Source: a virus
Lineage: Duplodnaviria > Heunggongvirae > Uroviricota > Caudoviricetes
Direction: 5' to 3' (one strand)
DNA length: 19,800 nucleotides
IMG/VR virus record: IMGVR_UViG_2609459834_000013
Span: 1-19,800 of that record
Numbering within the stretch: position 1 is the stretch's first letter; every line of letters begins with the position of its first letter. A program made the position numbers and the translations under genes. The notes under the pieces were generated by a model. The model worked only from the letters and a program-made list of their open reading frames with translations, searched no databases and had not been told where the DNA came from. This document shows positions 1 to 19,186 of the stretch, in pieces.

Positions 1-123
<123 letters not shown>

Positions 124-223
124 AAACCGGAAATAACGCCAGAAATGGTGGAAAAAATAGCCTAAATAGGCTGATTCGATGTGTTTGCGGGAAAAAAATC
201 GGCCCAGATCCGCGAAATTTTAA

Positions 224-946
224 TCAGCGAGTCAACTTGGGAAGAAATGACCTGCTTATTCGCACCTTCCCAAGATACACATGCCGATAAAGCTCGTGAT
301 TAGCCTTCTTCATAATCTCCATATCCCTGCGGAGAGTTTCCGGGAACCATGGATTAGCTGTGTAGTTGATCTGCTTGACGATGCAGTAGCGATTACCGTT
401 TTCGTCATAGTCGGGGTATATGCGATTCGTAACAAAGCGCTGATGTGTATCGCTGAGTCTGTTCTTCGGGTTGTATGCAACCCATATTTCCGACTCAACC
501 ACTCGACCATACTCAGCGCTGTAGAACTCTTTACGTACCGTTGGGATAAGCGTTTCCCATGAGTCCTTTGATACGTTTTCTGCTTCCTCTACAAGGGCGG
601 CATCGAAGTTTGCGTAACCTTTGATATTTTCCACGTTAAGGCGCAGGAAGTCGAAACTGATACGTCCGCCGCTATTGGCAAATATCTCTGTCTTATTGAT
701 AGTCACCAGTGAGTGGAGGTTTCGGCGGTTAATCTCTTCAACAATTTCCGCATAGCATGATTCCTTGATGGACTTCATGTACTCACGAAAACAGATAAGC
801 TTCCATCCGTGATAGATGACGTTATTGAGGAGGATTGTTATGAACGTTCGCGTCTTGGCGGAACCTCGCCCGCCATAAGCTACCTTGAATCTGGCTGGCT
901 GCAGGTATTCCTCAAACGCTTCAGGAATGCTGCATTGCTCTGTCAT
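224..946 (-). pseudogene. phage terminase large subunit, apparently 3'-truncated (ATPase domain only, 240 aa)
   Basis: ORF track 224..946; N-terminal Walker A-like motif GGRGSAKT typical of terminase large subunit ATPases; start overlaps terS stop (ATGA). Stop at 224 and no continuing minus-strand frame; terminase large subunits are normally over 400 aa with a C-terminal nuclease domain. Confidence 0.6.
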
Positions 947-1386
947 TGCGTCTCGCTTTTTACAATGTTATACACTGGAGCTTTTGGAGTCATGGAGCCG
1001 TCATCAGATGTATGGTTGACGTCCTGCTTCTCTCGCCATTTATCTTTCTGTCTGTTCTTGAGCCAGAAGATGGCGGCAGTTGTATCAGGCGGGTAATACT
1101 TCTTAAGCGGAGTTTCGACAATTCTGTTTTCAATAACACGAATATCGATGTCTGGAGCCACGAAGCCCATAGCGCGTTGATAAAGACGATCACTAACTTC
1201 TGCATCAGCGACGGCCTTACCCTTTTTTATGGACTCTAAAAACTCCGGATATTCCAATTTCCAATTGTTGATTGTTGCCTCGCTAACTTCAAAGAAGTCA
1301 GCGAGTTCGGCGTCTGTATAGCCCAGCAAGCACAGTTTGCGTGCCTGTTCGGCATACGCCTCTTGATACTTTGTTGGGCGCGCCAT
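943..1386 (-). CDS. phage terminase small subunit (HTH-type)
   Basis: ORF track 147 aa; N-terminal HTH-like region (…YTDAELADFFEVSEATINNWK…) and position immediately upstream of the large subunit with overlapping stop/start. Confidence 0.7.
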   Translation of the reverse strand: MARPTKYQEAYAEQARKLCLLGYTDAELADFFEVSEATINNWKLEYPEFLESIKKGKAVADAEVSDRLYQRAMGFVAPDIDIRVIENRIVETPLKKYYPPDTTAAIFWLKNRQKDKWREKQDVNHTSDDGSMTPKAPVYNIVKSETQ

Positions 1387-1388
1387 GT

Positions 1389-1631
1389 TTATGCTCCGGT
1401 GGTGAACAGGTCTAACGCTTCCTTCGATTTACGCACCGCTTCGATAGTGCGGGTCGTGATATCCGAATTAGCGCCGCCTGACTGGAAGTGAATTTTGAAT
1501 AGCTCAAGCTTCAGCTCGTCAGTGCCAATGAACTGAAATGCTTCTTCTGCGGCTGCGTTCTGGTTCATGACCAGTTTGTAAATCTCTAACTGGAATTTCT
1601 GTTCTTCAGTCATGGGAATAATCTCTGCCAT
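1389..1631 (-). CDS. hypothetical protein (80 aa)
   Basis: ORF track; ATG start preceded by ACGGAG Shine-Dalgarno; ends 2 bp before terS start. Confidence 0.5.
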   Translation of the reverse strand: MAEIIPMTEEQKFQLEIYKLVMNQNAAAEEAFQFIGTDELKLELFKIHFQSGGANSDITTRTIEAVRKSKEALDLFTTGA

Positions 1632-1927
1632 TGTTGGCTCCGTTTATCCGTTAAAAGGGATATCAGTTAAGTTATCCCGTGTAGGGTATAAGCCATTGTC
1701 GAGACCACTCATTGAATGGTCTCTGCAATAACCGATGTCTTTCCATCAGTCCGCCACCACAAAGAATCTTTTTTTGCCATAAGGCAGGAGGTTCATCTTT
1801 CAGTGGCTGCCAGTGTTATTTCCCCACTTACTGGCTTGGGTTGTTTCGTGGTACTGCCGTTAACTGGTGGCCCAGAATAAATTCCGGTTTCATTATCAAG
1901 CCCACCCGTAAATGGGCTTTGTAATGG

Positions 1928-2185
1928 CTACTTCGCTTTTGCTTCCGCTCGCTTACGCCGGCGCTCTTCTTTCCTCTCGGCTTTTGCCATGTCCATGAAT
2001 GCCTGCATGATCGAGTTCCGCATCATGTAGCTAACAAAGTGATGATTGACACAGCCGTTGAGGCGCAGCTGCTCGCCAAACTCATCCACCGAGGCCAATG
2101 CTTCCATCATGCCATTCTCGCCTTTCATGAACTCTGAGAAGTCACGTCCCGCTCTGGAGGCGCATTCAATGACACGATCACTCAT
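1928..2185 (-). CDS. hypothetical protein (85 aa) with highly basic C-terminal tail (ERKEERRRKRAEAKAK)
   Basis: ORF track; start overlaps stop of the KilA-N gene (ATGA coupling). Confidence 0.5.
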   Translation of the reverse strand: MSDRVIECASRAGRDFSEFMKGENGMMEALASVDEFGEQLRLNGCVNHHFVSYMMRNSIMQAFMDMAKAERKEERRRKRAEAKAK

Positions 2186-2679
2186 CCCGGAAGCCCGGGG
2201 ATCGTAATCTGCAGCTGGTTAGCCAGGGAGTTAATCTCAGCGACCAACACTGGCTTCGTATAGCGCCATGCTGCCAGCCCTTGTCCGCAGAAGCTCGCCA
2301 TGTCTTTCTTCTGGTCAAACTCATGACATTTCATGTTGAGCTGCGCACTTAAGCTGTTGCGATGCTGAAGTTCTCCGGTGAAGTAGTCATCGAGGACTTT
2401 ATAGGCCGCGTACTTGAACCCGGGGTTTAACCAAGCCGCATAATCGTAAGCAACAAACTTCCCGCCATATGTTCCACCGTGTACACCGCGCTCAGTAAAA
2501 ACCACAGATTCGTGGTTTTTCTCCAGCTCGGCTAAGAACTCTTTGGTCTGCTTGTTTCGCAGGTAGTGGTAAGGCGATTCAGATTCACTTTTACCACTGG
2601 CTTTCCACATATCAGTGAGGCAGATCATGCCATCTTCACCGATACGAATTGGTTGATTGAAGAGGGTTAATGATTTCAT
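2182..2679 (-). CDS. KilA-N domain protein (165 aa)
   Basis: ORF track; N-terminal region (…IRIGEDGMICLTDMWKASGK…YLRNKQTKEFL…) matches the KilA-N/APSES-type DNA-binding domain as I recall it from phage Ant/Bro proteins. Confidence 0.6.
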   Translation of the reverse strand: MKSLTLFNQPIRIGEDGMICLTDMWKASGKSESESPYHYLRNKQTKEFLAELEKNHESVVFTERGVHGGTYGGKFVAYDYAAWLNPGFKYAAYKVLDDYFTGELQHRNSLSAQLNMKCHEFDQKKDMASFCGQGLAAWRYTKPVLVAEINSLANQLQITIPGLPG

Positions 2680-2794
2680 AGCGTGTACCTACTCTTTGAA
2701 ATGAACCTTTGCCGCACAGGAAACCAGCCCACCGAGGCTCGCCAGCACTAACTGGTATCCTCAAAGGCCCATTCCAAAGGGGCAGGTTCGGTGT

Positions 2795-2820
2795 AAAAAA
2801 CATGCGTTGCGGTACGCATT
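2795..2820 (-). terminator. intrinsic terminator candidate (second of two after Rz)
   Basis: Minus-strand RNA AUGCGU-ACCGCA-ACGCAU followed by GUUUUUU; 6-bp stem. Coordinates approximate. Confidence 0.45.
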
Positions 2821-2821
2821 T

Positions 2822-2848
2822 ATTGCAAAAAGCCCCGCATCGCGAGGC
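2822..2848 (-). terminator. intrinsic terminator candidate directly downstream of Rz
   Basis: Minus-strand RNA AGCCUCGC-GAU-GCGGGGCU (7-8 bp stem with one G-U pair) followed by UUUUUGCAAU. Coordinates approximate. Confidence 0.5.
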
Positions 2849-2880
2849 TCATTAAATGGACTTTGTGATTTGCAAAAAAA

Positions 2881-3318
2881 TTATTTCAGGCATTGCGTCC
2901 TGATGTACTCCTGCAGGTAGTTAACCTGCGCGGTTATCCTGTCGATTCCACTTCGGAGACGGTAATAATTGAGTTCAGCATCTGCTGTAAGTCTTGGGCT
3001 TTCTCCATCGCCCATGCTGCTGGCTCCGGTCTTTGACTTTGCACAGGAGGCGGCGACTTGCAGCCGCTTACGCCCAGCAGAAACATCATCACGGAGACTT
3101 TCGATAGTCGCGTTAGCATCAGCAAGCTCCTTTGTATATCTGGCATCGAGTTCTGCTACGTCACGTTGACGCTTCTGCATGTCAGCGATGATGGATGTGG
3201 CTTTGTCGCGCTGCTCTTTGTAGGCGATGGCGTTATCACGGTAATGATTAACAGCCCATGACAGGCAGACGATGATGCAGATAACCAGAGCGGAGATAAT
3301 CGCGGTTACTCTGCTCAT
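2881..3318 (-). CDS. Rz: Rz i-spanin (145 aa)
   Basis: ORF track; N-terminal signal-anchor [31 protein letters not shown] matches lambda Rz as I recall it, then diverges; start overlaps R stop. Confidence 0.85.
2934..3119 (-). CDS. Rz1: Rz1 o-spanin lipoprotein embedded in the +1 frame of Rz
   Basis: Track ORF 2934..3146 contains [20 protein letters not shown] with lipobox and a proline-rich mature region ([16 protein letters not shown]). Start chosen at the internal Met (3119); a start at 3089 is also possible. Confidence 0.7.
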
Positions 3319-3791
3319 ACCTCAATATCTCTGACCGTTCCGCCAGCCTCTTTGAATTTTGCAATCAGGTTGTCAGCCTTATGCTCGAACTGGCCATAGC
3401 CAGCGCCCGGCAGTGAAGCCCAGATATTGCTGCAACGGTCGATTGCCTGACGAATATCACCGCGGTCAATCATCGGTAAAGCGCCACGCTCTTTAATCTG
3501 TTGCAATGCCACAGCGTCCTGGCTTTTCGGAGAGAAGTCTTTCAGGCCAAGCTGCTTACGATAGGCATCCCACCAACGGGAAAGAAGCTGATAGCGCCCG
3601 GCGGCTGTTGATTTGAGTTTGGGGTTTAGCGTGACAAGTTTGCGAGGGTGATCGGAGTAATCAGTGAATAGCTCTCCACCTACAATGACGTCATAACCAT
3701 GATTTCTGGTTTTCTGCCGTCCGTTATCAGTTCCCTCTGACCACGCCAGCATATCGAGGAACGCCTTACGTTGATTATTGATTTCCACCAT
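3315..3791 (-). CDS. R: endolysin R (lytic transglycosylase), 158 aa
   Basis: ORF track; sequence [39 protein letters not shown]… recognised as near-identical to lambda R. Confidence 0.95.
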
Positions 3792-4098
3792 CTTCTACTC
3801 CGGCTTTTTTAGCAGCGAAGCGTTTGATAAGCGAACCAATCGAGTCAGTACCGATGTAGCCGATGAACACGCTCGTTATATAAGCGAGATTGCTACTTAG
3901 TCCGGCGAAGTCGAGAAGGTCACGAATGAACCAGGCGATAATGGCGCACATCGTTGCGTCGATTACTGTTTTTGTAAACGCACCGCCATTATATCTGCCG
4001 CGAAGGTACGCCATTGCAAACGCAAGGATTGCCCCGATGCCTTGTTCCTTTGCCGCGAGAATGGCGGCTAACAGGTCATGTTTTTCTGGCATCTTCAT
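3775..4098 (-). CDS. S: holin S (S107/S105 dual-start), 107 aa
   Basis: ORF track; [43 protein letters not shown]… recognised as lambda S including the MKM dual-start motif. Confidence 0.95.
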
Positions 4099-4218
4099 GT
4101 CTTACCCCCAATAAGGGGATTTGCTCTATTTAATTAGGAATAAGGTCGATTACTGATAGAACAAATCCAGGCTACTGTGTTTAGTAATCAGATTTGTTCG
4201 TGACCGATATGCACGGGC

Positions 4219-4253
4219 AAAACGGCAGGAGGTTGTTAGCGCAACCTCTTGCC
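4219..4253 (-). terminator. strong hairpin / possible terminator between tR' and S
   Basis: 12-bp inverted repeat GGCAGGAGGTTG / CAACCTCTTGCC (one mismatch) with 6-nt loop; minus-strand RNA followed by GUUUUG. Coordinates approximate. Confidence 0.35.
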
Positions 4254-4390
4254 ACCCGCTTTCACGAAGCCAGCCATTGCGCTGGTTTTCTTTTATGCAA
4301 AGCACACCGCACCGTAGCCACAGCGGATAAGGTGATTATTTTTGTCTGTCTGGTATTTGGTTTGATGTGCTTTCAGAAAGGTCGTGATTA

Positions 4391-4424
4391 AAACGCAAAA
4401 AGCCCCGAGCTATTAACTCAGGGC
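4391..4424 (-). terminator. tR' intrinsic terminator of the short pR' leader transcript
   Basis: Minus-strand RNA GCCCUGAG-UUAAUAG-CUCGGGGC followed by UUUUUGCGUUUU, about 40-60 nt downstream of the pR' candidate. Confidence 0.7.
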
Positions 4425-4460
4425 TTTATTTAACGAGTGCATTTATCCATCGTTGAGTCA

Positions 4461-4489
4461 AATTTACCCAATCTTATTCAAAAAGTCAA
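4461..4489 (-). promoter_or_regulatory. late promoter pR' candidate (-35 TTGACT, 17-bp spacer, -10 TAAATT) with overlapping Q-utilisation region
   Basis: Hexamers read on the minus strand immediately downstream of Q stop; arrangement matches the lambda pR' location. Confidence 0.6.
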
Positions 4490-4531
4490 TATCATGCCGT
4501 TAATATGTTGCCATCCGTGGCAATCATGCTG

Positions 4532-5155
4532 CTAACGTGTGACCGCATTCAAAATGTTGTCTGCGATTGACTCTTCTTTGTGGCATTGCACCACCAGAGC
4601 GTCATACAGCGGCTTAACGGTGCGTGACCAGGTGGGTTGGGTAAGGTTTGGGATTAGCATCGTCACAGCGCGATATGCGGCGCTTGCTGGCATCCTTGAA
4701 TAGCCGACGCCTTTGCATCTTCCGCACTCTTTCTCGACAACTCTCCCCCACTGCTCTGTTTTTGCTATATCAACCGCACGGCCTGTACCGTGGCAATCTC
4801 TGCATCTTGCGCCCGGCGTCGCGGCACTACGGCAATAATCCGCATAAGCGAATGTTGCGAGCACTTGCAGTACCTTTGCCTTAGTATTTCCTTCGAGCTT
4901 TGCCACACCACGGTATTTCCCCGATACCTTGTGTGCAAATTGCATCAGATAGTTGATAGCCTTTTGTTTGTCGTTCTGGCTGAGTTCGTGCTTACCACAG
5001 AATGCAGCCATTCCGAATCCGGCTTGTGATTGCGCCATCCCCATAGCAGCCATCACATCAGTACCGGAAAGAGAGTCAGAAGCCGTAGCCCGTGGTGAGT
5101 CGCTCATCATCGGGCTTTTTGGCGAATGAAATTTAGCTACGCTTTCGAGTCTCAT
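4532..5155 (-). CDS. Q: late antiterminator Q (207 aa)
   Basis: ORF track; [34 protein letters not shown]… and the Cys-rich zinc-binding region recognised as lambda Q; start overlaps ninI stop. Confidence 0.95.
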
Positions 5156-5817
5156 GCGCCTTCTCCCTGTACCTGAATCAATGTGAGGTTTCCGCAGAAC
5201 ACTGCGCCGGTATCGATATACATCTGGTTGGCAAACTTGAGTGGTTTCACTGCTGGCGTATGACCAAAGATGAACGTGTCCGCACCTTTGATTTCTTTCA
5301 CGATCCCGTCTTGTGAGTTGCTGATTCGTTCGCGGTTCCAGATTACCTGCTGATGATCAACTGGTTTTCCAAACTCGTATTCGTCACAAGGATAATCGGC
5401 GTGGCAGATGACATATTTTTTATCTTTGCTCACCAGTTCGATGATTAACGGAAGTTCATCTGCTTTATGGGCAAGAGCTTTAGCCAGAATTTCTTTGTCG
5501 TAATCGAGATTAAAGAACCATCCACCGCCATTAAGCAGCCAGTGATTAACGTTTCCACGCTCTGATAAGCCATCAATCATCATTTGCTCATGGTTTCCAC
5601 GTACAGCTCTGAACCAGGGGAATGTGATTAATTCCAGGCATTCGACGTTCTCTGCACCACGATCAACCAAATCGCCCACCGAGATAAGCAGGTCTTTTTT
5701 GTTGTCGAATCCAATCGTATCCAGTTTGTTCATCAGGTTCGTGTAGCATCCGTGCAGATCGCCAACTACCCAAATATTTCGGTATTTGCTGCCATCAATT
5801 TTTTCGTAATAGCGCAT
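5152..5817 (-). CDS. ninI: Ser/Thr protein phosphatase (lambda ORF221 / NinI type), 221 aa
   Basis: Track ORF 5152..5892; metallophosphatase motifs GDLHGC, GDLVDRG, GNHE; start placed at internal Met [13 protein letters not shown] (5817), as in lambda. Confidence 0.85.
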
Positions 5818-6001
5818 CTCTTTCACTCCATCCGCGATGAACCATGAGAACGTCGTTGACGATGGCGTGCATTTTCCCGTCTTTATCATCAACGTATTTT
5901 CTGACCGTACCGCGACTACATTTCAGTCTGCGTGCTACTTCTGTCTGGTTTCCGTATGCTTCAACGAGCATGTCTGGAATGGTTTTTACTGAGAACGTCA
6001 T
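5795..6001 (-). CDS. ninH: NinH (68 aa)
   Basis: ORF track; size, sequence and position match lambda NinH as I recall it. Confidence 0.85.
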
Positions 6002-6609
6002 GCGGCCTCACTTCTGCTATTTCGCAGGTCTTTGAGTTTCTGTTGGTACTCTGCCTTGATCGCCTTGCACTCTTCGATAGTCCAGCGATGGCGGTTATGG
6101 TTTGATTCGATTTCGTCTACTGCTTCCTGCCCGATGCGGCTAATCAGTTCGACGCGATACGGAACGAGATTTCCGCTTTTGTGCTGGTTGCACACCACGC
6201 ATTGCTTGTGAATATTGCGTTCATCAAATCGGAGTTGAGGTGCCGCAGCAGTTGTCCGGTAATGTCCGGCATCCCACTGAGCAGACGTGAGCGTTCCGCA
6301 CGAGATACATGGTAAGTCGCGGTCTCTTTCTCTGATGAAGGCGTTTACGGCTTGTTGGGCTTGTTTAATCCAGTAACTGCGGGGCTTTAAGGCGAGTTTT
6401 CGAATCTTAAGTTTATCTTTCTGTTTCTGCTCCTCTCGTCGTCGTTTCTTCTCTGCTGCTTTTTCCGCTTTTTCGCGTTCTTTGCTTCGTCGTTCGAGTG
6501 CTATCTTGGTTCCACGCTCTGGAGAGCACCACCACTGATTAGCGAATGCAGGGTGAAACCATTCCCGGCATTCATCGTTTTTACATCGTCTTCGCGCTGG
6601 TTTAGCCAT
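5998..6609 (-). CDS. ninG: NinG (Rap) recombination protein, 203 aa
   Basis: ORF track; Cys-rich N-terminus and lysine-rich linker recognised as lambda NinG. Confidence 0.9.
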
Positions 6610-6878
6610 TATGGTTCACTCCAGTAATTCTCAATTGCAGCAGCCATTCTCTGCATCCACTCAGCCAGCTTTAACGCGGCTTCTCTTTCAGAACCACATT
6701 TAGGGAAATCCTTCATTTCCATGCTGGCCTTATATGTTCTGAATGCCAGGTCTCCGGTAATAACCAACTCCTGATCAAGCACCGAGCGTTTATTCCGGTG
6801 TTGAACGTAATAGACAAATTCAGTCCGCATTTCTTCTCTGTCTTTTTTGAAGGAAATAAGCTCAGAGAAATCACTCAT
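6609..6878 (-). CDS. hypothetical nin-region protein (89 aa)
   Basis: ORF track; ATG start overlapping ninF stop; no family recognised. Confidence 0.5.
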
Positions 6879-7047
6879 CGTCTTCTTCCTCGTACATTGA
6901 GCTATTCGGATCGCTCATCAGTTCTGCGCAGCAGTGCTCACACATGTGAACTTCCAGCACATGCAGCTTCTGACCGCAGTTAGCGCACGTTAAAGCCCGC
7001 TCGACGCTTTCTTTCTGGTATTGAATGGATTGGGATGGGCTAAGCAT
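6871..7047 (-). CDS. ninF: NinF (58 aa; below the ORF-track size cutoff)
   Basis: Hand translation of the minus strand gives [58 protein letters not shown], matching lambda NinF in its Cys motif and acidic tail. Confidence 0.7.
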   Translation of the reverse strand: MLSPSQSIQYQKESVERALTCANCGQKLHVLEVHMCEHCCAELMSDPNSSMYEEEDDE

Positions 7048-7408
7048 TATTGGCGTCCTGCATCATGAGAAAGACAATCATGGCGGCGCGGAGAACATTT
7101 TCATGCTCATGCTCCCAAATAGGGTTGGCAGAAGCACCGTGCAAACCGCTTTCGTTCCAGTCCCAGAGAATGTTAACTCCGTTATCAGCAATAATCGGCC
7201 ATGCGTCTGCTGGGTTTGCGCATGGGTTAAAGGATCCGCGCTCAACTTCTACTTCAACTGCGTCTCCGTTTACAATGTCTCCCTCAAATGAGATAAACAC
7301 CATCGCGCCATTCTCACCTTCTTTGTAATCCGGTGATCCGTTATGAATGGCTTCGAATACCGCCACGTTAATTTCAAAATCACTTAACTGTGAATAATCC
7401 ATTGTCAT
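7040..7408 (-). CDS. hypothetical nin-region protein (122 aa), possibly NinX-like
   Basis: ORF track; sits between ninE and ninF, where P22-type phages carry ninX; start overlaps ninE stop. Family assignment is from memory and weak. Confidence 0.5.
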
Positions 7409-7581
7409 TTCCTCGCACGTTCTCTAAGCCACCGGATATCCCACAGGTGAGCCGTGTAGTTGAAGGTTTTTACGTCAGATTCTTTTGGGATTGGCTTGCG
7501 TTTATTTCTGGAGCGTTTCGTTGGAAGGTATTTGCAGTTTTCGCAGATGATGTCGGTGAAACTTCGTCGCTGTCGCCTCAT
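7405..7581 (-). CDS. ninE: NinE (58 aa)
   Basis: Track ORF 7405..7671; internal Met [58 protein letters not shown] matches lambda NinE. Confidence 0.85.
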
Positions 7582-8105
7582 GCCGCCCTCCTGACGCCCT
7601 GCCCGATCGCCATCAATGCCGCTTTGGATACGGTAGTAAACATCCGTCGAGGACTGATGAACGGTCGCCAAATCAGCAGCATGGAGCCTTTGCTGTTTCC
7701 CTTCTTCTCCAGCCCTGTCGATGGTTCGATAAAATTAATCCGTCCATCAGTGATAATGCGAACTTCGTCGACACTCTCCAGAGCCTTGCTGAACCATCCG
7801 ACTGACATATCCTCTGGCACAAGCATAACTACCGTCTGTCGCTGTTGTATGCACTGCTCAGCGGCTTTTTCCACCCACGGCCTGATATTGCTGTACGGTG
7901 GGTTATTCCAGATTGCACCGTGGCTTATCCACTCAGAATTTAGCGCGTCGTCGACCTCAGTTAACCAGTGAGCGCACAGAGCATTTTTGTCGCTCGCTGC
8001 CGAATCCAGCCAGAATCCAAACTCAATATCCAGTGCATCAAAAAGCCAAAGCGGCGTTTGCCAGCAGTCCTTGTCGTGTGCTGGCGTATTTGATTTGATA
8101 GTCAT
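7578..8105 (-). CDS. phage DNA N6-adenine methyltransferase (orphan Dam type), about 175 aa
   Basis: Track ORF 7578..8165; NPPY catalytic motif (…[13 protein letters not shown]…); start placed at the Met overlapping ninB stop (ATGA). No adjacent restriction endonuclease. Confidence 0.7.
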
Positions 8106-8542
8106 GCAGCCCGATCTCCCCATCGCGCTTTCCATTCGAGAGCCAGTCGCGCTTCGTCTGACCACTTAACGCCACGCTCTGTACCGAATGCCTGTATAAG
8201 CTCTAATAGCTCCGCAAATTCGTTTACACGCATCCTGCTGGTTGACTGGCCTATTACCACAAAGCCATTCCCGGCAAGGTTAGGAACAACATCCTGCTGC
8301 TTTAATGCTGCGGTAAACACACACTTCCAGCTTTCTGCATCCAGCCAGCGACCATGCCATTCAACCTGACGAGAGACGTCACCAAGGCAAGCCCAAAGCT
8401 TTCGATTCTGGTCTAAGCTGCGGTTGCGTTCCTGAATGGTTACTACGATTGGTTTGGTTGGGTCTGGAAGGATTTGCTGGATAGCTTGAATGGCGTTCTG
8501 CTGATGGATGGGGCTTCTTAGTTCAAACGTTAGTTTCCTCAT
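8102..8542 (-). CDS. ninB: NinB (Orf) recombination mediator, 146 aa
   Basis: ORF track; near-identical to lambda NinB as I recall it (…PIVVTIQERNRSLDQNRKLWACLGDVSRQVEWHGRWLD…). Confidence 0.9.
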   Translation of the reverse strand: MRKLTFELRSPIHQQNAIQAIQQILPDPTKPIVVTIQERNRSLDQNRKLWACLGDVSRQVEWHGRWLDAESWKCVFTAALKQQDVVPNLAGNGFVVIGQSTSRMRVNEFAELLELIQAFGTERGVKWSDEARLALEWKARWGDRAA

Positions 8543-8759
8543 GGGATGAACTCCAGTTTGTGATGTTAAATTCCCATTTAATTACCTTTGCATACCCAAT
8601 TTTGAACCCATCAATACCTATCCACCGCTTGCCACTCCAATAAGCTGTGCCACTTTGCTTGAAATGATGTGGATGCCTAGATTGAGTGGTCACAGTTACA
8701 GGTAAATATGGCTTCGGGTATTCCCCATTCCCTGGATAACCAGATTTAATTTTGCTCAT
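8523..8759 (-). CDS. hypothetical protein (78 aa), AT-rich gene
   Basis: ORF track; ATG with purine-rich Shine-Dalgarno (GAGAGAGG); overlaps upstream gene stop and ninB start; visibly AT-rich compared with neighbours. Confidence 0.5.
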   Translation of the reverse strand: MSKIKSGYPGNGEYPKPYLPVTVTTQSRHPHHFKQSGTAYWSGKRWIGIDGFKIGYAKVIKWEFNITNWSSSHEETNV

Positions 8760-9094
8760 TGATACCCTCTCTCACTTAATCGCCTCCACGCTTCGTTAAA
8801 CTCTTCTCGAGTTGCGCCGGATTTTCTTTCTTCAAACATCATGCATTCGCTGATGTCTCCCCATGACTTTGGTCGCTTTTCAGCGAACAGATCATCCCAT
8901 TCGAATACCCAGCGGCCTGATTTTCGGCAGTGGTAAATGGTCAGCCATGTTGTGCTGTTCGCTGGATACCCATAGAGAACTTCGACTTTTTGATCACGGT
9001 CTTTATGCTTTTTCAGCAGGATAAAGCCAGCAACCAGCGAAGCTCCGGCAAGAATGATGATTGGAATTTGCCAGTCAGCCACACTCCCCCCCAA
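8756..9094 (-). CDS. hypothetical small membrane protein (about 108-112 aa; non-ATG start)
   Basis: ORF track; N-terminal hydrophobic helix IPIIILAGASLVAGFILL followed by KKHKDRDQ; start codon is TTG (9094) or GTG (9082) and neither has a convincing Shine-Dalgarno. Confidence 0.35.
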   Translation of the reverse strand: MGGSVADWQIPIIILAGASLVAGFILLKKHKDRDQKVEVLYGYPANSTTWLTIYHCRKSGRWVFEWDDLFAEKRPKSWGDISECMMFEERKSGATREEFNEAWRRLSERGYQ

Positions 9095-9123
9095 ATAAAA
9101 AGGCCTGCGATTACCAGCAGGCC
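9093..9123 (-). terminator. intrinsic terminator candidate downstream of the helicase gene
   Basis: Minus-strand RNA GGCCUGC-UGGUAAUC-GCAGGCC followed by UUUUUAUUU, 27 bp after the helicase stop. Confidence 0.5.
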
Positions 9124-9149
9124 TGTTATTAGCTCAGTGATGTAGATGG

Positions 9150-10526
9150 TCATACGTCAGCCCCTTGTGCATATCTTCTGCCACGCGCAGCAGGTGCATT
9201 TGATGTTGTGCAAATCTGTCTGGCTTCATCCTGGTCACATGCCACAAAGTGTCCGTTGCAGAATCGCTGGTAAACCGTACCAAGTGAGCCAAAACGGTTT
9301 TTCGTCACGATGATTTCAGCAAATGGCGCGGCGCTACTGTTCTCGTCATATACCGCTTCCCGATAGAGCATGATGATTGAGTCTGCGTCCTGCTCAATGC
9401 TTCCTGAATCACGCAAATCTGCGTTTGTCGGGCGTTTGTTTGGTCGCTTCTCAACATCGCGCGAAAGCTGACTCAGGGAGATAACTGGCGTTTTCAGGTC
9501 TTTCGCCATCGCCTTCAGGCTTCCGGAGATGTGAGCAATTGCGAGGTCGTTGCGATCTGCTTTCGGCTTCTCAATCAGGCCAAGATAATCCGCCATGATG
9601 AGTGACAGGTTTGGATTTTCCTGTTTGTGCCGTTCTGCGATTGAGCGAATTTCTTCGACAGATAACCGCGAGGCATCGACTACCCATACATCCAAATCTG
9701 CAAGCTGACTCATGCCGTTAGCAACGCGCGCCCAGCCTTCGTCATCCATCGATGCAGGATTTCGCAGCACGCTAACCGACATCCTCCCGGCGTTGGCAAT
9801 GCTTCGCTCTGCAATCTGCAATGCGCTCATTTCCATCGAGAAAATCAATACTCCGCGCCGGACGTCAGAACCAGGAATAACGCGACTTGCAACGCCTTCG
9901 GCAATCTTCAGCGCCAGTTCGGTTTTCCCCATACCAGGACGAGCGGCGATTATCACCAGGTCTTCCGCGTTCATCCCTCCGGTGATAGCGTCAAGTTCTT
10001 CGATTCCGGTCTTCAGGGTATCGGACTCTTCTCCGTTCCTCAGACGCCTGTCAAGCGTGTCAGTGTAGTCGGTGATGATTTCCCCTAACCGTACAGGTTT
10101 AACCTCGTCACGGGGCTTTCTGATGGCTGAAAGACGCTTTACAAGCTCATCCATCGCCTGACTCGATGTATCGATAGTTCCGTTCTGAATTGGTTCGCGC
10201 ATTTCATCCATGATTTCCAGCACCAGACGGCGGTGATAGTTATCCGCGACCATTCCGGCATATCCCTTCAGGTTTGCGGCACTCGGGCAGTTCTTACTGG
10301 TCATCAGGATTGACGTGAAATGCTCCTCTCCGCACGCCTCGGCAACCATCAGCGCGTCGATTAGGTTTCTGTTTCTCGCCTGCTTGCGGATAACCTCGAA
10401 GGCTTTCCGGTAGAGCGGAATTGAAAACGCTTCCGGCTCAAGCGTTGCCAGAACGTCACTGGCGGTTGGAGTTAATCCACCAATCAGCAGGCCACCGATA
10501 ACGCTCGCTTCGATATCCTGTCTCAT
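9150..10526 (-). CDS. replicative DNA helicase, DnaB family (P22 gene 12 type), 458 aa
   Basis: ORF track; Walker [14 protein letters not shown], Walker B-like LIMADYLGL and other DnaB-type motifs; overlaps the initiator gene stop. Confidence 0.85.
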
Positions 10527-11353
10527 GCAATCCCCCTGTCTGCAAACTTCCCTTCCCGAACTCCCGTTAACGAGTCTTCTCTCAGCAGGTAATCAAAATC
10601 AGCCGTCCAGCCCGTGTCGTTGTCTCCGAAGTAAAACGGCTTGGCCTGATGCACAAACGCCCTGACATACGCTCTGAAACCGTCCACGTTTGGCGTTTTC
10701 AGTTGCGGAATGATTTTCTTCAGGCGACGTTTGCGTTTCTCGTTGACCGCAACAGCGTGTGGCAGTCTGTCACCGACTTCGGTGTTGTAGGCGTTCAGGA
10801 AGGATTCATAGTCGATTCGTTCTGCCTTGCGACGTTCAGGTTTAACCTGCCCATCGCCGCCCCCGTTAGGGGGTAAGGGGGTATTTGTATTTATTGTCTT
10901 TTGTATATTGTCTTTTGTGTTTGACTGATTCGGTAAATTGCTTTTTACCGATTTGGTGAAGGTTTGTTTTACCGAATTGGTAAATGTTTTACCGAATCCG
11001 TTAACTTTCGTTTTCCACTCGGAAATGTTTGTATTCATACCAACTTGACGCCCCACCTGAATGAGAACTCCCATTCTGATAAGCTCGTTTTTGGCGGTAG
11101 AGCATTTGGTTGGTGCCATGCCAGTGAGTTCAGCGAACTGTTCGTTTCCGATCCAATCTATTTTTTTGTTGTAACCGTATGTCTTGCGCCACACAGCCAT
11201 AACAATCAGTAACTGATGTAGAGTAAGTCCAGAAAGCATGGCGGCTTCTAACAGTGTGTTTGCAGTCCGAGTGTAGCCATCTTCGAGTTCTGCCACGCGA
11301 TGCTCCACGACCTCCAGTTGAGGCCTGTAATCAGCTAACTTAACGACGCCCAT
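10523..11353 (-). CDS. replication initiator with lambda O-type N-terminal DNA-binding domain (276 aa)
   Basis: ORF track; N-terminal region resembles the O-protein N-terminal domain; the low-complexity middle ([30 protein letters not shown]…) is encoded by the iteron/AT-rich DNA, as in lambda ori. Confidence 0.8.
10925..11005. repeat. origin of replication iterons (about four copies of TTTTACCGAAT-n-GGTAAA-like 18-20 bp repeats) with adjacent AT-rich tract (about 10875-10920)
   Basis: Repeats read directly in the sequence, spaced about 22 bp apart inside the initiator gene, followed in the gene's direction by an AT-rich stretch. Coordinates approximate. Confidence 0.65.
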
Positions 11354-11501
11354 GTTTCACTCCTGCTTTGGCTAGTCTGTAAACACCAACAAGGCGCTCT
11401 GCGAACGCCCTGTTATTTGCTGCGGCTACCACTAATCCCTCAGGTGAATCAGGGTGTCGAATCTCTTCTTTTTCCTGGTATTTCTTACGACGTTTTGTCA
11501 T
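11340..11501 (-). CDS. small hypothetical ORF (53 aa; below the ORF-track cutoff) between cII and the initiator gene
   Basis: Hand translation [53 protein letters not shown]; ATG preceded by AGGAGT Shine-Dalgarno; 3' end overlaps the initiator start. Confidence 0.35.
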   Translation of the reverse strand: MTKRRKKYQEKEEIRHPDSPEGLVVAAANNRAFAERLVGVYRLAKAGVKHGRR

Positions 11502-11535
11502 AATGACTCCTGTGGATTGATCCAGTCTTTCTACA

Positions 11536-11817
11536 TCAGGCCTCGAAGAATTCGCCGTTCTTCGGGGCTTTTTCTTTTGTCAGGTAATTGGCAAGCCGCT
11601 TAGTCAGCTCAGCCATTTCATCGTCTTCGATTCCGTATTCCAGAACAGCCAGCATCATGCTTACCTGCGAGAAGAAACCATTCTTCCATCGGCTTACCTG
11701 ATATTCAGGAACCCCCATCGCTCGAGCGAATGTCTTCTGCCCCATCAGTGCCAGTTTGTTCAGCAAGGCTGACTCGATGCGAGCCGCTTTCTTGCTTTTA
11801 GTTGCAATAGTACCCAT
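11536..11817 (-). CDS. cII: CII transcriptional activator homolog (93 aa)
   Basis: ORF track; …RIESALLNKLALMGQKTFARAMGV…QVSRWK…MLAVLEYGIEDDEMAEL… aligns with lambda CII as I recall it; AAGGA Shine-Dalgarno upstream. Confidence 0.8.
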   Translation of the reverse strand: MGTIATKSKKAARIESALLNKLALMGQKTFARAMGVPEYQVSRWKNGFFSQVSMMLAVLEYGIEDDEMAELTKRLANYLTKEKAPKNGEFFEA

Positions 11818-11893
11818 AGATAATTTCCTTAATGATTAGATAGAGTTGGCTTCGCAAAGAAACGCAAAACCATAGAGATTTGTTTCTGGTAAT

Positions 11894-11925
11894 GCCCTTT
11901 TTCAGGGCGGTGATGTGTAAGAGCG
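11894..11925 (-). promoter_or_regulatory. nutR (boxA CGCTCTTACACA, boxB GCCCTGAAAAAGGGC)
   Basis: Read on the minus strand directly after the cro stop; matches the lambda nutR boxA/boxB sequences from memory. Confidence 0.75.
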
Positions 11926-11933
11926 GGAATGTC

Positions 11934-13286
<1,353 letters not shown>

Positions 13287-13336
13287 TCCTCACCTCAATT
13301 TCGACAACCAAAAAACAAACTATTTTCCGTTTAAAA

Positions 13337-13409
13337 ACAATGGAGTTTGTTTTTCACGCCCATTTTTACAATATTTCTTGTTTACAACATACAATCTTTC
13401 TTGTAATTT
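13337..13409 (+). promoter_or_regulatory. OL operator region (three ACAA-n6-TTGT sites) overlapping pL candidate (-35 TTTACA, 17 bp, -10 TAATTT)
   Basis: Sites ACAATGGAGTTTGT, ACAATATTTCTTGT and ACAATCTTTCTTGT at about 13337-13350, 13368-13381 and 13391-13404; promoter hexamers at about 13381-13386 and 13404-13409 face N. Confidence 0.7.
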
Positions 13410-13449
13410 TAAGCCATCAGCAGGACGCACTAACCACCATTGAAGGTGA

Positions 13450-13480
13450 GGCTCTTAAAAATTTAGCCCTGAAGAAGGGC
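13450..13480 (+). promoter_or_regulatory. nutL (boxA-like GCTCTTAAAAA, boxB GCCCTGAAGAAGGGC)
   Basis: Read directly upstream of N; matches lambda nutL boxB from memory. Confidence 0.75.
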
Positions 13481-13590
13481 AGCATTCAAAGCAGAAAGCT
13501 TTGAGTAGCGCGAAATGCAGCTGCAAGACAGCAACCGTGGAGATAAGCATCACGGCGCGTTACTCAAAGCTAACTGACAGGAGAATCCAG

Positions 13591-14488
<898 letters not shown>

Positions 14489-14611
14489 TTAAAAGACAGG
14501 CATACTAATAAACACTGCACTGTGTATTCATTCCAACGAGTGAATACACGGAGCAATGTCGCTCGTAACTAAACAGGAGCCGACTTGTTCTGATTATTGG
14601 AAATCTTCTTT

Positions 14612-14639
14612 GCCCTCCAATGTGAGGGCAGTTTTTTTT
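14612..14639 (+). terminator. intrinsic terminator (tL1-like) on the pL strand
   Basis: GCCCTC-CAATGT-GAGGGC hairpin followed by AG and a run of eight T, 13 bp before the next start codon. Confidence 0.7.
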
Positions 14640-14652
14640 GACGGAGTAAACG

Positions 14653-14901
14653 ATGATAAAAACTGATTACCCTGCAGATCTTAAACAAAAAGTAATAACA
14701 GCAATTAAATGCTCTTTTATCTCATGTCGTACAGATGAAGAACGATATGTCGTTGAGTGTGCAATTGTCGAGTTTCTCACAGCGATGGAGTTTACCGCTG
14801 CAGAATCAATAGATGTATTAAAGCAATCAGACGGAAATGATATTGAAACGGATGATGTTATTGACCGACTAATAAAATCATTCGAAGAAGAAATAGAGTA
14901 G
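14653..14901 (+). CDS. hypothetical small acidic protein (82 aa; about 20 Asp/Glu versus 9 Lys/Arg)
   Basis: ORF track; GGAG Shine-Dalgarno 8 nt upstream; AT-rich; sits where lambda carries ral. Confidence 0.55.
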   Translation: MIKTDYPADLKQKVITAIKCSFISCRTDEERYVVECAIVEFLTAMEFTAAESIDVLKQSDGNDIETDDVIDRLIKSFEEEIE

Positions 14902-14984
14902 CCGCCTGAGCGCGGCTTTACCGCATACCAATAATGCTTCACGAGAGGCATTTTCGTTATGCAATCAAATATAAGGAGTTACCC

Positions 14985-15119
14985 ATGATGCACTTTCAGC
15001 TCGCGGGTAGCGGCGTCATGTCCGCTTTCTACCCGCACGAATCAGAATTATCACGCCGAGTTAAACAATTAATCAGAGCAGCAAAGAAACAACTGGAGGC
15101 GTTATGCGCAATGAAATAG
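14985..15119 (+). CDS. cIII: CIII-like protein (FtsH inhibitor family), 44 aa
   Basis: Track ORF 14934..15119; start placed at the ATG after an AAGGAG Shine-Dalgarno; core …PHESELSRRVKQLIRAAKKQLEAL resembles lambda CIII core …PSESLLERITRKLRDGWKRLIDIL. Confidence 0.55.
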   Translation: MMHFQLAGSGVMSAFYPHESELSRRVKQLIRAAKKQLEALCAMK

Positions 15120-15256
15120 CCATTAATCACCAGATGCTTCGTGCTGCACAGAACAAAGCAGTAATAGCCCGATTTATTGGTGATTCAAAAATGTGGCTTG
15201 AAGCAAATAAAGCGATGAAATCAGCTATCAATCTTCCGTGGTATCGCAGGAAATGA
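15104..15256 (+). CDS. kil: Kil-like small protein (50 aa; below the ORF-track cutoff)
   Basis: Hand translation MRNEIAINHQMLRAAQNKAVIARFIGDSKMWLEANKAMKSAINLPWYRRK*; GGAGG upstream; the FIGD-containing segment resembles lambda Kil as I recall it. Confidence 0.45.
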   Translation: MRNEIAINHQMLRAAQNKAVIARFIGDSKMWLEANKAMKSAINLPWYRRK

Positions 15257-15411
15257 GTTTTACAGATAACTGGTCAGACGAAGAATTCATTCGTCAGATG
15301 AAAGAATTAATCGATAACGAAGGAGATATTCATGTCACTTGCAACCACAGTGAAGGAGAGCAAGTTACAGAGACGCATGTACACGCAGAAAGCTCTCTGG
15401 TATCGCCATAA
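15253..15411 (+). CDS. small hypothetical ORF (52 aa)
   Basis: Hand translation MSFTDNWSDEEFIRQMKELIDNEGDIHVTCNHSEGEQVTETHVHAESSLVSP*; start overlaps the kil-like stop (ATGA). Confidence 0.3.
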   Translation: MSFTDNWSDEEFIRQMKELIDNEGDIHVTCNHSEGEQVTETHVHAESSLVSP

Positions 15412-15512
15412 TGGCGACCGCGAAGGAATGCGGGTATGCCTTAATTTGTCCCGAGTAGAAGTATTAAATCAGCGTTATTTCCTTGGGCCATGTCCATTCT
15501 GAGAACAATCAT

Positions 15513-16118
15513 ATGAGCAAAGAATTTTACGCAAGGCTGGCAGCTATTCAGGAGAATCTGAACGCGCCAAAGAATCAATACAACTCATTCGGCAAATATA
15601 AATACAGAAGCTGCGAAGACATTCTTGAGGGTGTTAAGCCGTTACTGAATGGCCTGTTTTTATCAATCAGCGATGAAGTTGTGTTGATTGGTGATCGGTA
15701 TTACGTGAAAGCCACGGCAACTATTACTGATGGCGAAAACAGTCATACAGCAACCGCTCTTGCACGAGAGGAAGAAAGCAAGAAAGGAATGGATTCTGCA
15801 CAAGTTACGGGAGCTACAAGCTCTTATGCACGCAAGTATTGCCTCAATGGTTTGTTCGGCATTGATGATGCGAAAGATGCAGATACAGACGAGCATAAAC
15901 ATCAGCAGAACGCAGCAGCAAAGCAATCAAAACCATCACCTACACCTGAACAGGTTCTAAAAGCATTCACTGACGCAGCATTGCAGAAAAACACCGTGGA
16001 AGAGCTTAAACAGGCGTTCGCCAAAGCGTGGAAGATGCTCGAAGGCACACCGGAGCAGCAAAAAGCGCAGGACGTTTACAACATCAGACGAGACGAATTA
16101 GAAGGGGCGGCTGCTTAA
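15513..16118 (+). CDS. erf: Erf-family single-strand annealing protein (about 201 aa)
   Basis: Track ORF 15483..16118 (TTG-extended); from Met MSKEFYARLAAIQENLNAPKNQYNSFGKYKYRSCEDILEGVKPLL… resembles P22 Erf. Confidence 0.8.
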   Translation: MSKEFYARLAAIQENLNAPKNQYNSFGKYKYRSCEDILEGVKPLLNGLFLSISDEVVLIGDRYYVKATATITDGENSHTATALAREEESKKGMDSAQVTGATSSYARKYCLNGLFGIDDAKDADTDEHKHQQNAAAKQSKPSPTPEQVLKAFTDAALQKNTVEELKQAFAKAWKMLEGTPEQQKAQDVYNIRRDELEGAAA

Positions 16119-16501
16119 TGGCACATTCGATTACTGTAAGACTAAACAAGCCCGCAAGAGAGTTTCAGGCCGGGGAAAATATCGGATTCAACATCCGTGC
16201 TGGAGTTCAGTATTACGATCGCCAGACAAAAAAGAAAGAATGGACAAACTACAGCGCCGTTGTATTTGCCAAGCCGGGAGCGCAAGCGGATTACTACCGT
16301 AGTGTTCTTGTTGAAGGTGGCATTGTTGAAATTACCGGAGAAAACATCAGGGTTGATATTTATCAGGGGCAAAATGGTCAATCAATCACTCTTGAATTAC
16401 TGAATGCAAAGATTGGATTTGCAGCTTCAGGAAATGGCCCGCAGCAGCAAAGTAGTAACCAGCAGAACACTCCTGTATACGACGATTCCATCCCATTCTG
16501 A
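16118..16501 (+). CDS. ssb: single-stranded DNA-binding protein (short phage SSB with acidic DDSIPF tail), 127 aa
   Basis: Track ORF 16028..16501; start at the Met overlapping the erf stop (TAATG); C-terminal …PVYDDSIPF resembles the SSB protein-interaction tip. Confidence 0.7.
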   Translation: MAHSITVRLNKPAREFQAGENIGFNIRAGVQYYDRQTKKKEWTNYSAVVFAKPGAQADYYRSVLVEGGIVEITGENIRVDIYQGQNGQSITLELLNAKIGFAASGNGPQQQSSNQQNTPVYDDSIPF

Positions 16502-16524
16502 TTTAGAAAAATAAGGATTTAATT

Positions 16525-16821
16525 ATGCCAGCGCCTTTGTATGGCGCGGATGACCCGCGCCGCTGTTCCGGCAATTCCGTATCGGAGGTGCTGGATAAAT
16601 TCAGAAAAAACTACGATCGAATAATGTCTCTACCGCAGGAAACGAAAGAGGAAAAGGAATTTCGCCACTGTATATGGCTTGCAGAGAAAGAAGAACGCGA
16701 GCGAATTTACCAGACATCAATCCGACCATTCCGCAAAGCCACTTATACCCACTTCCCTGAATATATCGACCCGCGCCTGCGTAATTACCGCTCACGCTAT
16801 GGCGCTATCAGTAATGACTGA
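16525..16821 (+). CDS. hypothetical protein (98 aa)
   Basis: ORF track; AAGGA Shine-Dalgarno upstream. Confidence 0.5.
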
Positions 16822-16831
16822 GGAATTTACC

Positions 16832-16996
16832 ATGAGAGGACTTGCATACAATCCCGGCATTCTTCCGGCAGAAATGATTATTCGCCAACGCGTAAAGCCA
16901 ATGCCATCGAGAGAGGAATTACTTAAGAGAAATTCTTTTCCATCAGTGAATCAAAACAAATATCTGAATGCGATGTTGCGGAGTGGGAAGAAATGA
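16832..16996 (+). CDS. small hypothetical protein (54 aa)
   Basis: Internal Met of track ORF 16679..16996 preceded by TGAGGAA Shine-Dalgarno; stop overlaps the next gene start. Confidence 0.35.
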
Positions 16997-17517
16997 AACA
17001 AATGTCACTAATTGAGATGGATGGTTTTCTGAAAGGTAAATGCATCCCACGAGATTTAAAGGTTAACGAAACAAACGCTGAATATCTGGTGCGCAAGTTC
17101 GGTGAGCTTGAATCAAAACTGGAAACGGCGTTGCGGGAGTGTCGTTCTGCTGGAATCACGATTGATAACCTTGAGGCTAAATGCGCGAAGATGGCTGCTG
17201 AAAATACCTCGCTTAAGCAATCTGAGAAGGAATTTAATGACTTTTGTCGTGAGGAGTTTAGCGAATGGGAAGATGATGTTACTGAAACCCCGACCACCGA
17301 CGCCTTCCTGGCTGAAGTGCGGGCCAGCGCGGTAGAAGAGGCTTGCCTGAAAATTAGCAACGCCATCGTTAATTGCTATCAGGACGAACAAATCGGTCTT
17401 GATGCGGCAGCAACTATCTGCGGGGACTTCGCCGCCCAACTTCGCCAGGATGCCAACACCGCAGAACTGGTAGCCGCTGGAATCATCACTAAGGTGGGGG
17501 GGGTAGGGTATGGCTGA
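16993..17517 (+). CDS. hypothetical protein with predicted coiled-coil region (174 aa), ea-region type
   Basis: ORF track; translationally coupled to both neighbours. Confidence 0.5.
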
Positions 17518-17782
17518 GTTTACGAAAGAGCAGTTGATTGAGAAGCTTGAGCGCCGTCTTGCGGTAACAACCCATTACCCTGATGTTGAAGAAGCGCAAC
17601 TCGATGCGCAAATCTTCAAAATCGCACTGGCAGTGCTGACGGCTGATGCATCCATGTACGCCAGTGAAGAGACGTTAATCTGTGCGGAACAAGGTGAGTT
17701 TCTCTTGCGCACCCTAAACAGACCAGCTGGTGACGCCACTATCCCACTCTACCGCCTACCACTGCTGGAGGGATTGAAATGA
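17510..17782 (+). CDS. hypothetical acidic protein (90 aa)
   Basis: ORF track; overlaps both neighbours. Confidence 0.5.
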   Translation: MAEFTKEQLIEKLERRLAVTTHYPDVEEAQLDAQIFKIALAVLTADASMYASEETLICAEQGEFLLRTLNRPAGDATIPLYRLPLLEGLK

Positions 17783-19028: not shown

Positions 19029-19114
19029 TGTGGCCTATATGTGTTAATTGCGGACGGATGTGCCTATCTGGATGGTGCAGAAAGTGCGACAAATGCACGA
19101 AGAAAAGACAATAA
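19025..19114 (+). CDS. small Cys-rich peptide (29 aa; possible zinc ribbon)
   Basis: Hand translation MMWPICVNCGRMCLSGWCRKCDKCTKKRQ*; start overlaps the upstream stop (ATGA). Confidence 0.3.
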   Translation: MMWPICVNCGRMCLSGWCRKCDKCTKKRQ

Positions 19115-19148
19115 CAATCCTCGAACTCGCGGGGATTTCTTTTATCTG

Positions 19149-19173: not shown

Positions 19174-19186
19174 ATGGAGACAAGAA

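Follow-up and report, generated by a model that had tools for sequence, protein, structure and literature searches.

The closest described relative of the gene studied here is the one encoding M.EcoVT2Dam (BAA94133), the orphan N6-adenine DNA methyltransferase of the Shiga toxin (Stx) phage VT2-Sakai. In PMC6602927 this enzyme "is known to target 5'-GATC-3'", with Radlinska and Bujnicki 2001 (PMID 11720311) given as the source, and the same work is cited among phage Dam-like enzymes in PMC7556043. A more distant relative is M.Phi93DAM of the Lactococcus 936-type phage phi93 (KM091443, Phi93_04), a member of family PF05869 (117 bits). Its methylation of GATC was demonstrated by SMRT (single-molecule, real-time) sequencing of phage DNA and by DpnI/DpnII digests of phage and plasmid DNA, and it shields DNA from DpnII (PMC4190342). 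Here we analyse the dam gene located on the minus strand of a 19,800-nucleotide stretch of a Caudoviricetes genome (positions 1 to 19,800 of the IMG/VR record IMGVR_UViG_2609459834_000013, hereafter the window). We consider, with a probability of about 0.88, that its product is an active stand-alone, S-adenosylmethionine (AdoMet)-dependent N6-adenine methyltransferase of GATC, made as a delayed-early protein and topping up the GATC methylation of phage DNA. The gene, its family, motifs, fold, operon position, and orphan status come from the present analysis and the GATC specificity from the literature on enzymes at 99% and 33% identity, while from these we infer the mechanism of recognition and the biological role.

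The window protein is identical to VT2-Sakai Dam in 173 of 175 residues and has the same length; the two differences, V51 against A and I60 against V, are conservative and fall in variable columns of the family alignments. As in the M.EcoVT2Dam group, the gene is an orphan placed between ninB and ninE with overlapping start and stop codons. The carriers differ, the window phage being a non-Stx mosaic whose terminase, Erf, and Abc2 genes are like those of P22 and the HK phages. The gene is also found in 933W, Phi24B, Min27, HK97 (HK97p49), HK544, mEp213, and Sf101, with a nucleotide identity of 98.5-99.8%, and the BAA94133 record lists similarity to L0094 of 933W, Orf13 of HP1, and the T1 methyltransferase. 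M.Phi93DAM is 33% identical to the window protein, and both are orphans with an NPPY motif. It differs in being only 140 residues long, without the C-terminal strand and helix (around residues 142-175 of the window protein), and in the location of its gene, which a virulent phage with a Gram-positive host carries between its small and its large terminase gene. Since the specificity holds from 33% to 99% identity, methylation of the adenine in GATC is a safe prediction for the window protein on homology. The initial annotation had proposed such a target prediction as a check, and it led to GATC through both M.EcoVT2Dam, as described in the citing papers, and M.Phi93DAM.

The gene and the elements that define it are the following.

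7578 to 8105, minus strand: dam, 175-residue phage N6-adenine DNA methyltransferase (PF05869 / TIGR01712, M.EcoVT2Dam allele), from the open reading frame (ORF) and the profiles
8102 to 8105, minus strand: ATGA overlap of the dam start (ATG, 8105-8103) with the ninB stop (TGA, 8104-8102)
7578 to 7581, minus strand: ATGA overlap of the dam stop (TGA, 7580-7578) with the ninE start (ATG, 7581-7579)
8116 to 8121, minus strand: putative Shine-Dalgarno-like run GGGGAG, inside the 3' end of ninB and 10 nt 5' of the dam ATG, from sequence reading
7893 to 7904, minus strand: codons of catalytic motif IV, N68-P69-P70-Y71 (N68 and P70 invariant, P69 and Y71 in at least 90% of 53 sequences)
7995 to 8015, minus strand: motif I-like codons F31-W-L-D34-S-A-A37, putative AdoMet-binding loop after strand beta1 (D34 invariant, F31 and A37 at least 90% conserved)
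8052 to 8063, minus strand: codons W15-Q-T17-P18, motif X-like, putative start of the N-terminal helix packing on the cofactor site (T17 invariant, P18 at least 90% conserved)

The dam ORF consists of 175 codons plus the stop. NPPY corresponds to residues 68-71 (window 7893-7904), with gtacggtgggtt in the plus strand and AAC CCA CCG TAC as its reverse complement. Reading of the sequence thus confirmed the limits 7578-8105, the length of about 175 residues, and the motif given in the initial annotation. An in-frame GTG at 8165 is an alternative start that would yield 195 residues; because the biggest homologue clusters are 175 residues long and begin with the same MTIKS, the ATG at 8105 was taken as the start. 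The coupling of dam to ninB that had been claimed is seen in the ATGA overlap at 8105-8102, and a second one joins dam to ninE, so translation of dam would be coupled to ninB upstream and to ninE downstream through these overlaps.

The profile matches of the dam product are far beyond chance. PF05869, the family of small phage "mini-Dam" enzymes, was matched with an E-value of 1.6e-64 and 217 bits (cut-off 28.1), from profile position 1 to 167 out of 169. For TIGR01712, the NCBIfam equivalog for phage N-6-adenine-methyltransferase, the score was 262 bits (cut-off 97) and the match extended from position 1 to 165 out of 165. The product also matched phrog_111 (DNA methyltransferase) over its full length, and its best PADLOC models were those of oMTase, orphan methyltransferase. 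Conservation was evaluated in two alignments, one of 30 sequences at 58-98% identity and the other of 53 family members at 32-80% identity. Residues T17, D34, N68, P70, and R122 were invariant, and at least 90% of the sequences shared P18, F31, A37, W59, P69, Y71, F125, N137, G140, and S141; none of these residues is missing from the window protein, and the WxTP, FxLDxAA, and GRxxF...NxKGS segments of the PF05869/TIGR01712 family are all present in it. The enzyme assignment had been made to depend on the catalytic residues being kept on alignment, and none was lost in either set. By analogy with gamma-class methyltransferases the F31-A37 segment is a putative motif I, and a strand was seen there (residues 31-34) in the AlphaFold2 (AF2) model; W15-Q-T17-P18 would act as a motif X-like helix start. 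The Pfam scan of the product at E ≤ 0.01 gave PF05869 only, with no match to the family of E. coli Dam and T4 Dam, alpha-class and D12-type, whose Pfam entry we take to be PF02086. The full-length PF05869 and TIGR01712 matches and the PADLOC oMTase models therefore uphold the identity as an orphan N6-adenine DNA methyltransferase, and the term "Dam-type" is right for the GATC target but not for the family. This small phage gene is a familiar one, present here in an intact copy, and public records annotate it correctly.

The AF2 model obtained from the 53-sequence alignment had a mean predicted local distance difference test (pLDDT) of 94.8 and a predicted template modelling score of 0.90. An earlier model from 30 close homologues had a pLDDT of 74.6, and the structural neighbours ranked the same in both. 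Their scores were 11.7 for PCIF1, 10.3 for M.TaqI, 10.0 for MmeI, 9.8 for M.BseCI, 9.4 for E. coli Dam, and 8.4 for T4 Dam, in alignments covering 105-146 residues at 8-17% identity. The product is a small single-domain enzyme of compact, Rossmann-type class I methyltransferase fold, within the family size of about 140-180 residues and without a separate target-recognition domain; it consists solely of the catalytic domain of an N6-adenine methyltransferase, with NPPY. No relative was found among the solved structures of the PDB by sequence or family profile, and the matches to SdiA and Med31 structures (E-values 0.01-0.07) were rejected as due to a chance "wcNPPYS"-like string. The gamma-class enzymes (M.TaqI, M.BseCI, the MmeI methyltransferase domain, and type I HsdM) share with the window protein the NPPY motif and the same linear order, from N-terminal helix to cofactor loop to NPPY. 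They have in addition a separate C-terminal recognition domain or a specificity subunit, whereas the window protein has none and 132-146 of its 175 residues align to the gamma-class catalytic domain alone. E. coli Dam, T4 Dam, and DpnM, the alpha-class GATC enzymes, belong to a different family, with 8-11% identity over some 105 aligned residues. They are about 260-280 residues long and have a DPPY motif and a target-recognition domain between the cofactor and catalytic halves, an insertion that is absent from the window protein. The GATC specificity common to the window protein and the host Dam is convergence, not descent.

Taking these features together, the flipped adenine would enter the NPPY pocket (residues 68-71) and the cofactor would be held around D34 of the motif I-like segment and the WxTP N-terminal helix. 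GATC would be read by conserved loops of the catalytic domain, for which R122 and N137-x-K-G-S141, near beta6-beta7, are the candidates. A different view of the substrate is that the enzyme acts on RNA (e.g., rRNA), or is a relaxed or non-specific adenine methyltransferase, the GATC label being an annotation habit. Precedents can be cited, since a Stx-prophage "DNA adenine methyltransferase" proved to prefer 16S rRNA (PMC10810198) and non-specific phage adenine methyltransferases such as M.EcoGII and the Serratia OS31 enzyme exist. However, they come from other families: M.EcoPA8orf6770P is an MT-A70 enzyme with DPPW (PMC10810198) and M.EcoGII is of the beta class, while the window protein matches PF05869 only. 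Both are, like the window dam, prophage-borne orphan adenine methyltransferases of E. coli, but they differ in family and in substrate. M.EcoPA8orf6770P is described with DPPW, the MT-A70 profile, and a partner specificity subunit (PMC10810198), and what the window protein shows is NPPY and no MT-A70 Pfam match. We rejected on these grounds that dam is the prophage rRNA methyltransferase of Gong et al. 2023, an MT-A70 enzyme with DPPW encoded by another gene, and also that it is related to the non-specific M.EcoGII. Besides, in vivo methylation of GATC in DNA is reported, in the papers citing the original work, for the VT2 enzyme, at 99% identity, and GATC was the sole motif attributed to M.Phi93DAM by SMRT sequencing (PMC4190342). 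In the structural comparison, the scores of M.TaqI, MmeI, M.BseCI, and E. coli Dam come close to that of PCIF1. An RNA or non-specific substrate is thus very improbable in our estimation.

The window covers the early and lysis regions of a lambdoid/P22-like mosaic phage, read in reverse. The two neighbours of dam and the general gene order are as follows.

8102 to 8542, minus strand: ninB (Orf recombination mediator), 5' neighbour of dam (PF05772, 2.5e-54)
7405 to 7581, minus strand: ninE, 3' neighbour of dam (PF05322, 1.7e-42)
Left part of the window: terminase (224-946); Rz, endolysin, and holin; Q (4532-5155)
nin part: NinI phosphatase, NinH, NinG, an 89-residue ORF, NinF, NinX, NinE, dam, NinB
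Right part: two small ORFs, a terminator, P (DnaB-type helicase, 9150-10526), O, cII, cro
Other strand, after cro: cI, N, a Ral-like gene, Erf, SSB, Abc2

The homology with lambda spans ninB (92.6% identical), ends exactly at the ninB stop codon (window 8102), and restarts at window 7574, inside the first ninE codons; dam therefore fills exactly the slot that the ninC-ninD cassette occupies in lambda, between the ninB stop and the ninE start and with the same 4-nt ATGA junction to ninB. Lambda ninC-ninD is unrelated to dam in sequence, NinC being a protein similar to 3'-phosphoadenosine 5'-phosphosulfate (PAPS) reductase. By these borders in the sequence, dam is a cassette swapped at gene limits, and HK97 has the same ninB-dam-ninE arrangement. 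We also observed a 452-residue cluster representative (P0195) in which a PF05869 Dam domain (1-173) runs straight into a PAPS-reductase-like part, homologous to lambda NinC over its full length (49% identity, starting at NinC residue 1). It is either a real fusion or a gene-calling artefact; dam and ninC can thus be adjacent and are not strict alternatives for the slot after ninB, and DNA or nucleotides are tentatively suggested as a possible substrate of NinC too. For the window as a whole, the best match in the phage and E. coli collections had a coverage of 65%, and none was full-length; its known modules form a new combination, a fact without consequence for dam. Rfam and tRNA scans of the window were empty.

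No restriction endonuclease was detected in the 19.8 kb by domain scans of the ORFs and PADLOC. The sole nuclease-type gene is NinG/Rap (5998-6609), a junction-specific enzyme, and dam has no adjacent endonuclease gene of matching specificity such as characterizes type II restriction-modification. The absence of a partner endonuclease, as initially annotated, agrees with these flanks of NinB and NinE. The homologues at 64-68% identity in Yersinia and Providencia prophages, which are placed in early operons and overlap their neighbours as dam does, also had no restriction endonuclease nearby. It could be argued that dam is the modifying partner in a restriction-modification system with an overlooked endonuclease, or that it is decaying and already inactive, and there are window ORFs without Pfam assignment (about 12924-13286, 13907-14410, 16993-17517, 17510-17782, and 19187-19531). 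These, however, are common phage PHROGs of unknown function with no PADLOC match, 5-11 kb away and in other operons, the genes directly flanking dam are NinB and NinE, and ninB-dam-ninE without an endonuclease recurs in hundreds of phages. Against a dead gene stand the intact conserved residues and its maintenance at an identity of at least 95% in 1566 genomes. We give this explanation, in its two forms, practically no credit and retain a functional orphan enzyme.

Some other genes related to restriction or exclusion were observed. In three Providencia prophages (L006-L008) a restriction-alleviation gene of Lar type (PF14354, about 5260-5630) lies in the same early-right operon as the Dam homologue, and a second methyltransferase, of N6_N4 type (PF01555), is located just after Q (from about 7890-8210 to the end of the locus); several anti-restriction functions are there stacked in one phage. 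In the window, the plus-strand ORF 14653-14901 (82 residues) of the pL operon matches phrog_14587 "anti-restriction protein" (2e-48) and lies where lambda has ral; neither Pfam nor PADLOC gave a match for it, and with it the phage may have a second restriction-related function besides dam. The minus-strand ORF 13907-14410 (167 residues), opposite N and abutting it, matched only phrog_1244, with no Pfam or PADLOC match, and lambda has sieB (superinfection exclusion) in this position and orientation. Just 3' of cI and on the same plus strand there is an ORF at about 12924-13286 (listed as 12810-13286; phrog_2651, no Pfam or PADLOC match), which occupies the position of lambda rexA/rexB; we consider it a candidate exclusion or defence gene, probably expressed in lysogens together with the repressor.

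Upstream of the nin genes, the following transcription signal was found.

9101 to 9124, minus strand: tR2-like intrinsic terminator, just 3' of P and 5' of the nin genes, with stem AGGCCTGC...GCAGGCCT followed by TTTTATTT

The segment 9153-9084 is 97% identical to lambda 40567-40636, which we take to be tR2. No promoter-like site was found by the promoter scan between this terminator and Q; in 4400-11500 the scan gave a single one, 3' of Q, at the expected position of the late promoter. Because of the tR2-like terminator upstream and the lack of a promoter-like site up to Q, and by analogy with established lambda biology, dam would be a delayed-early gene of the pR operon, dependent on N antitermination and repressed in the lysogen, transcribed from pR only after N-mediated read-through of the terminator. 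This agrees with what is described for Phi24B, whose dam is 100% identical to that of VT2-Sakai and is among the coding sequences with lytic-cycle-linked expression, with a significant change on induction in quantitative PCR (PMC3342100).

The initial annotation had also suggested that the enzyme could alter host gene expression in lysogens. It would then be made in the lysogen as an epigenetic regulator of host or prophage genes, with stabilised lysogeny or virulence gene expression as outcomes. The Phi24B dam product was in fact found by an antibody screen of lysogen cultures, and its authors speculated that it may supplement host Dam, needed for stable 933W lysogeny (PMC3342100); prophage methyltransferases can shift induction frequency too, as described for M.EcoPA8orf6770P, of another family (PMC10810198). 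On the other hand, dam lies behind the terminator in a repressor-controlled operon, the nin region upstream of it contains no promoter-like site, and the quantitative PCR of Phi24B places it among lytic-linked genes (PMC3342100). Its target, moreover, duplicates that of host Dam, and no new methylated motif is expected, since a Dam+ host already methylates GATC. Methylomes of Shiga toxin-producing E. coli with two dam copies showed only GATC, CTGCAG, and CRARCAG, the last ascribed to a Type IIG enzyme (PMC6602927). The lysogen proposal is poorly supported by these data, and we regard such a role as improbable, though less so than the two alternatives on substrate and on a missing partner.

Other elements were noted in the same region. 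Two small minus-strand ORFs occupy 8523-9094, between the tR2-like terminator and ninB: 8756-9094 (112 residues, phrog_5903), with a hydrophobic N-terminal stretch, and 8523-8759 (78 residues, phrog_29435), which overlaps the ninB start. The terminator scan also detected at 10944-10984 (plus-strand coordinates), inside O, TTTACC-type units forming a long, imperfect inverted repeat, TTTACCGATTTGGTGAAGG...TTTACCGAATTGGTAAA; it probably corresponds to the replication-origin iterons in O and not to a terminator. GATC sites exist at 8113-8116, in the interval from the Shine-Dalgarno-like run to the dam ATG, and at 7605-7608, just 5' of ninE, and were discarded as self-regulatory sites as they are within chance at a density of one in about 570 bp.

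Avoidance of GATC is strong in the window, where 35 sites were counted and 88-100 expected. Its observed/expected ratio of 0.35 makes it the second most depleted of the 256 tetramers, after CTAG (2 against 19.5 expected), and the regions poorest in GATC are the replication genes and the pL operon. In enterobacteriophages this avoidance has been ascribed to MutH acting on under-methylated DNA (Deschavanne and Radman 1991, as cited in PMC5014478 and PMC8541194), and the same two papers relate the proposal that phage Dam enzymes keep rapidly replicating DNA methylated. Following this proposal, the window enzyme would top up GATC methylation while phage replication outpaces a limiting host Dam. 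With full methylation of the packaged genomes, these would withstand enzymes of DpnII/MboI type in the next host and offer MutH no unmethylated GATC as a substrate. Extra methylation of replicating phage DNA at GATC is, as we infer, the best-supported role. The protection of phage DNA from restriction put forward in the initial annotation is plausible, and the case in which it has been shown is that of a distant family member against DpnII (PMC4190342).

Several points weigh against the reading of dam as an active GATC methyltransferase that supplements the methylation of phage DNA. The top structural match of the model was PCIF1, an RNA cap methyltransferase, and from a predicted fold by itself one cannot tell whether the substrate is DNA or RNA; the loops proposed above for recognition (R122 and N137-x-K-G-S141) are a conjecture; and the GATC specificity of VT2 Dam is known through two citing papers. 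As regards the role, it is not established for any lambdoid phage, and the extra gain in E. coli, a host with a Dam of its own, is uncertain; PMC7556043 likewise considers the benefit of phage Dam in Dam+ hosts still unexplained. Lastly, the observed/expected ratio of GATC is 0.54 in lambda, without dam, and 0.62 in HK97, with dam, in a comparison of two genomes of a mosaic family. Considering that both are similarly depleted, carrying dam has not visibly relaxed the avoidance, and a relaxation in dam carriers found no support from these values together with the 0.35 of the window.

The gene is common. DNA at least 95% identical over its whole length was found in 244 phage records (Stx1 and Stx2 phages, HK97, HK544, mEp213, mEp332, Sf101), almost always annotated in the order "NinB | methyltransferase | NinE", and in 1566 of 5426 complete E. 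coli genomes, where the PGAP name is "phage N-6-adenine-methyltransferase". At the protein level, relatives were present in 1898 of 50,697 phage records (about 4%), from Escherichia, Klebsiella, Vibrio, Lactococcus, Gordonia, and others, and an exhaustive HMMER search gave 8521 cluster representatives at E ≤ 0.001. Four representatives (P0139, P0140, P0146, and P0239; 515-691 residues) have PF05869 at the C-terminus and a C5-cytosine methyltransferase (PF00145) as the N-terminal part, and are predicted to be bifunctional phage methyltransferases making 5-methylcytosine and N6-methyladenine.

For annotation these results matter little, as the gene is correctly named in more than 1500 complete E. 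coli genomes and hundreds of phage records, and the near-identical VT2-Sakai enzyme already has a REBASE name and a reported specificity. The window copy gives no special handle on how such small enzymes read GATC or on their benefit in Dam+ hosts, and the wider interest is in the family, since PF05869 enzymes are among the smallest sequence-specific DNA methyltransferases. It is possible, although we hold it to be rather unlikely, that the PF05869 core reads GATC in a way unseen in solved methyltransferases, by the R122 / N137-x-K-G-S141 loops or as a dimer with a half-site per subunit. Within the same tentative idea, its value in Dam+ hosts may differ from classical anti-restriction and consist in the rescue of fast-replicating DNA from MutH or other sensors of under-methylated GATC, beside GATC avoidance.

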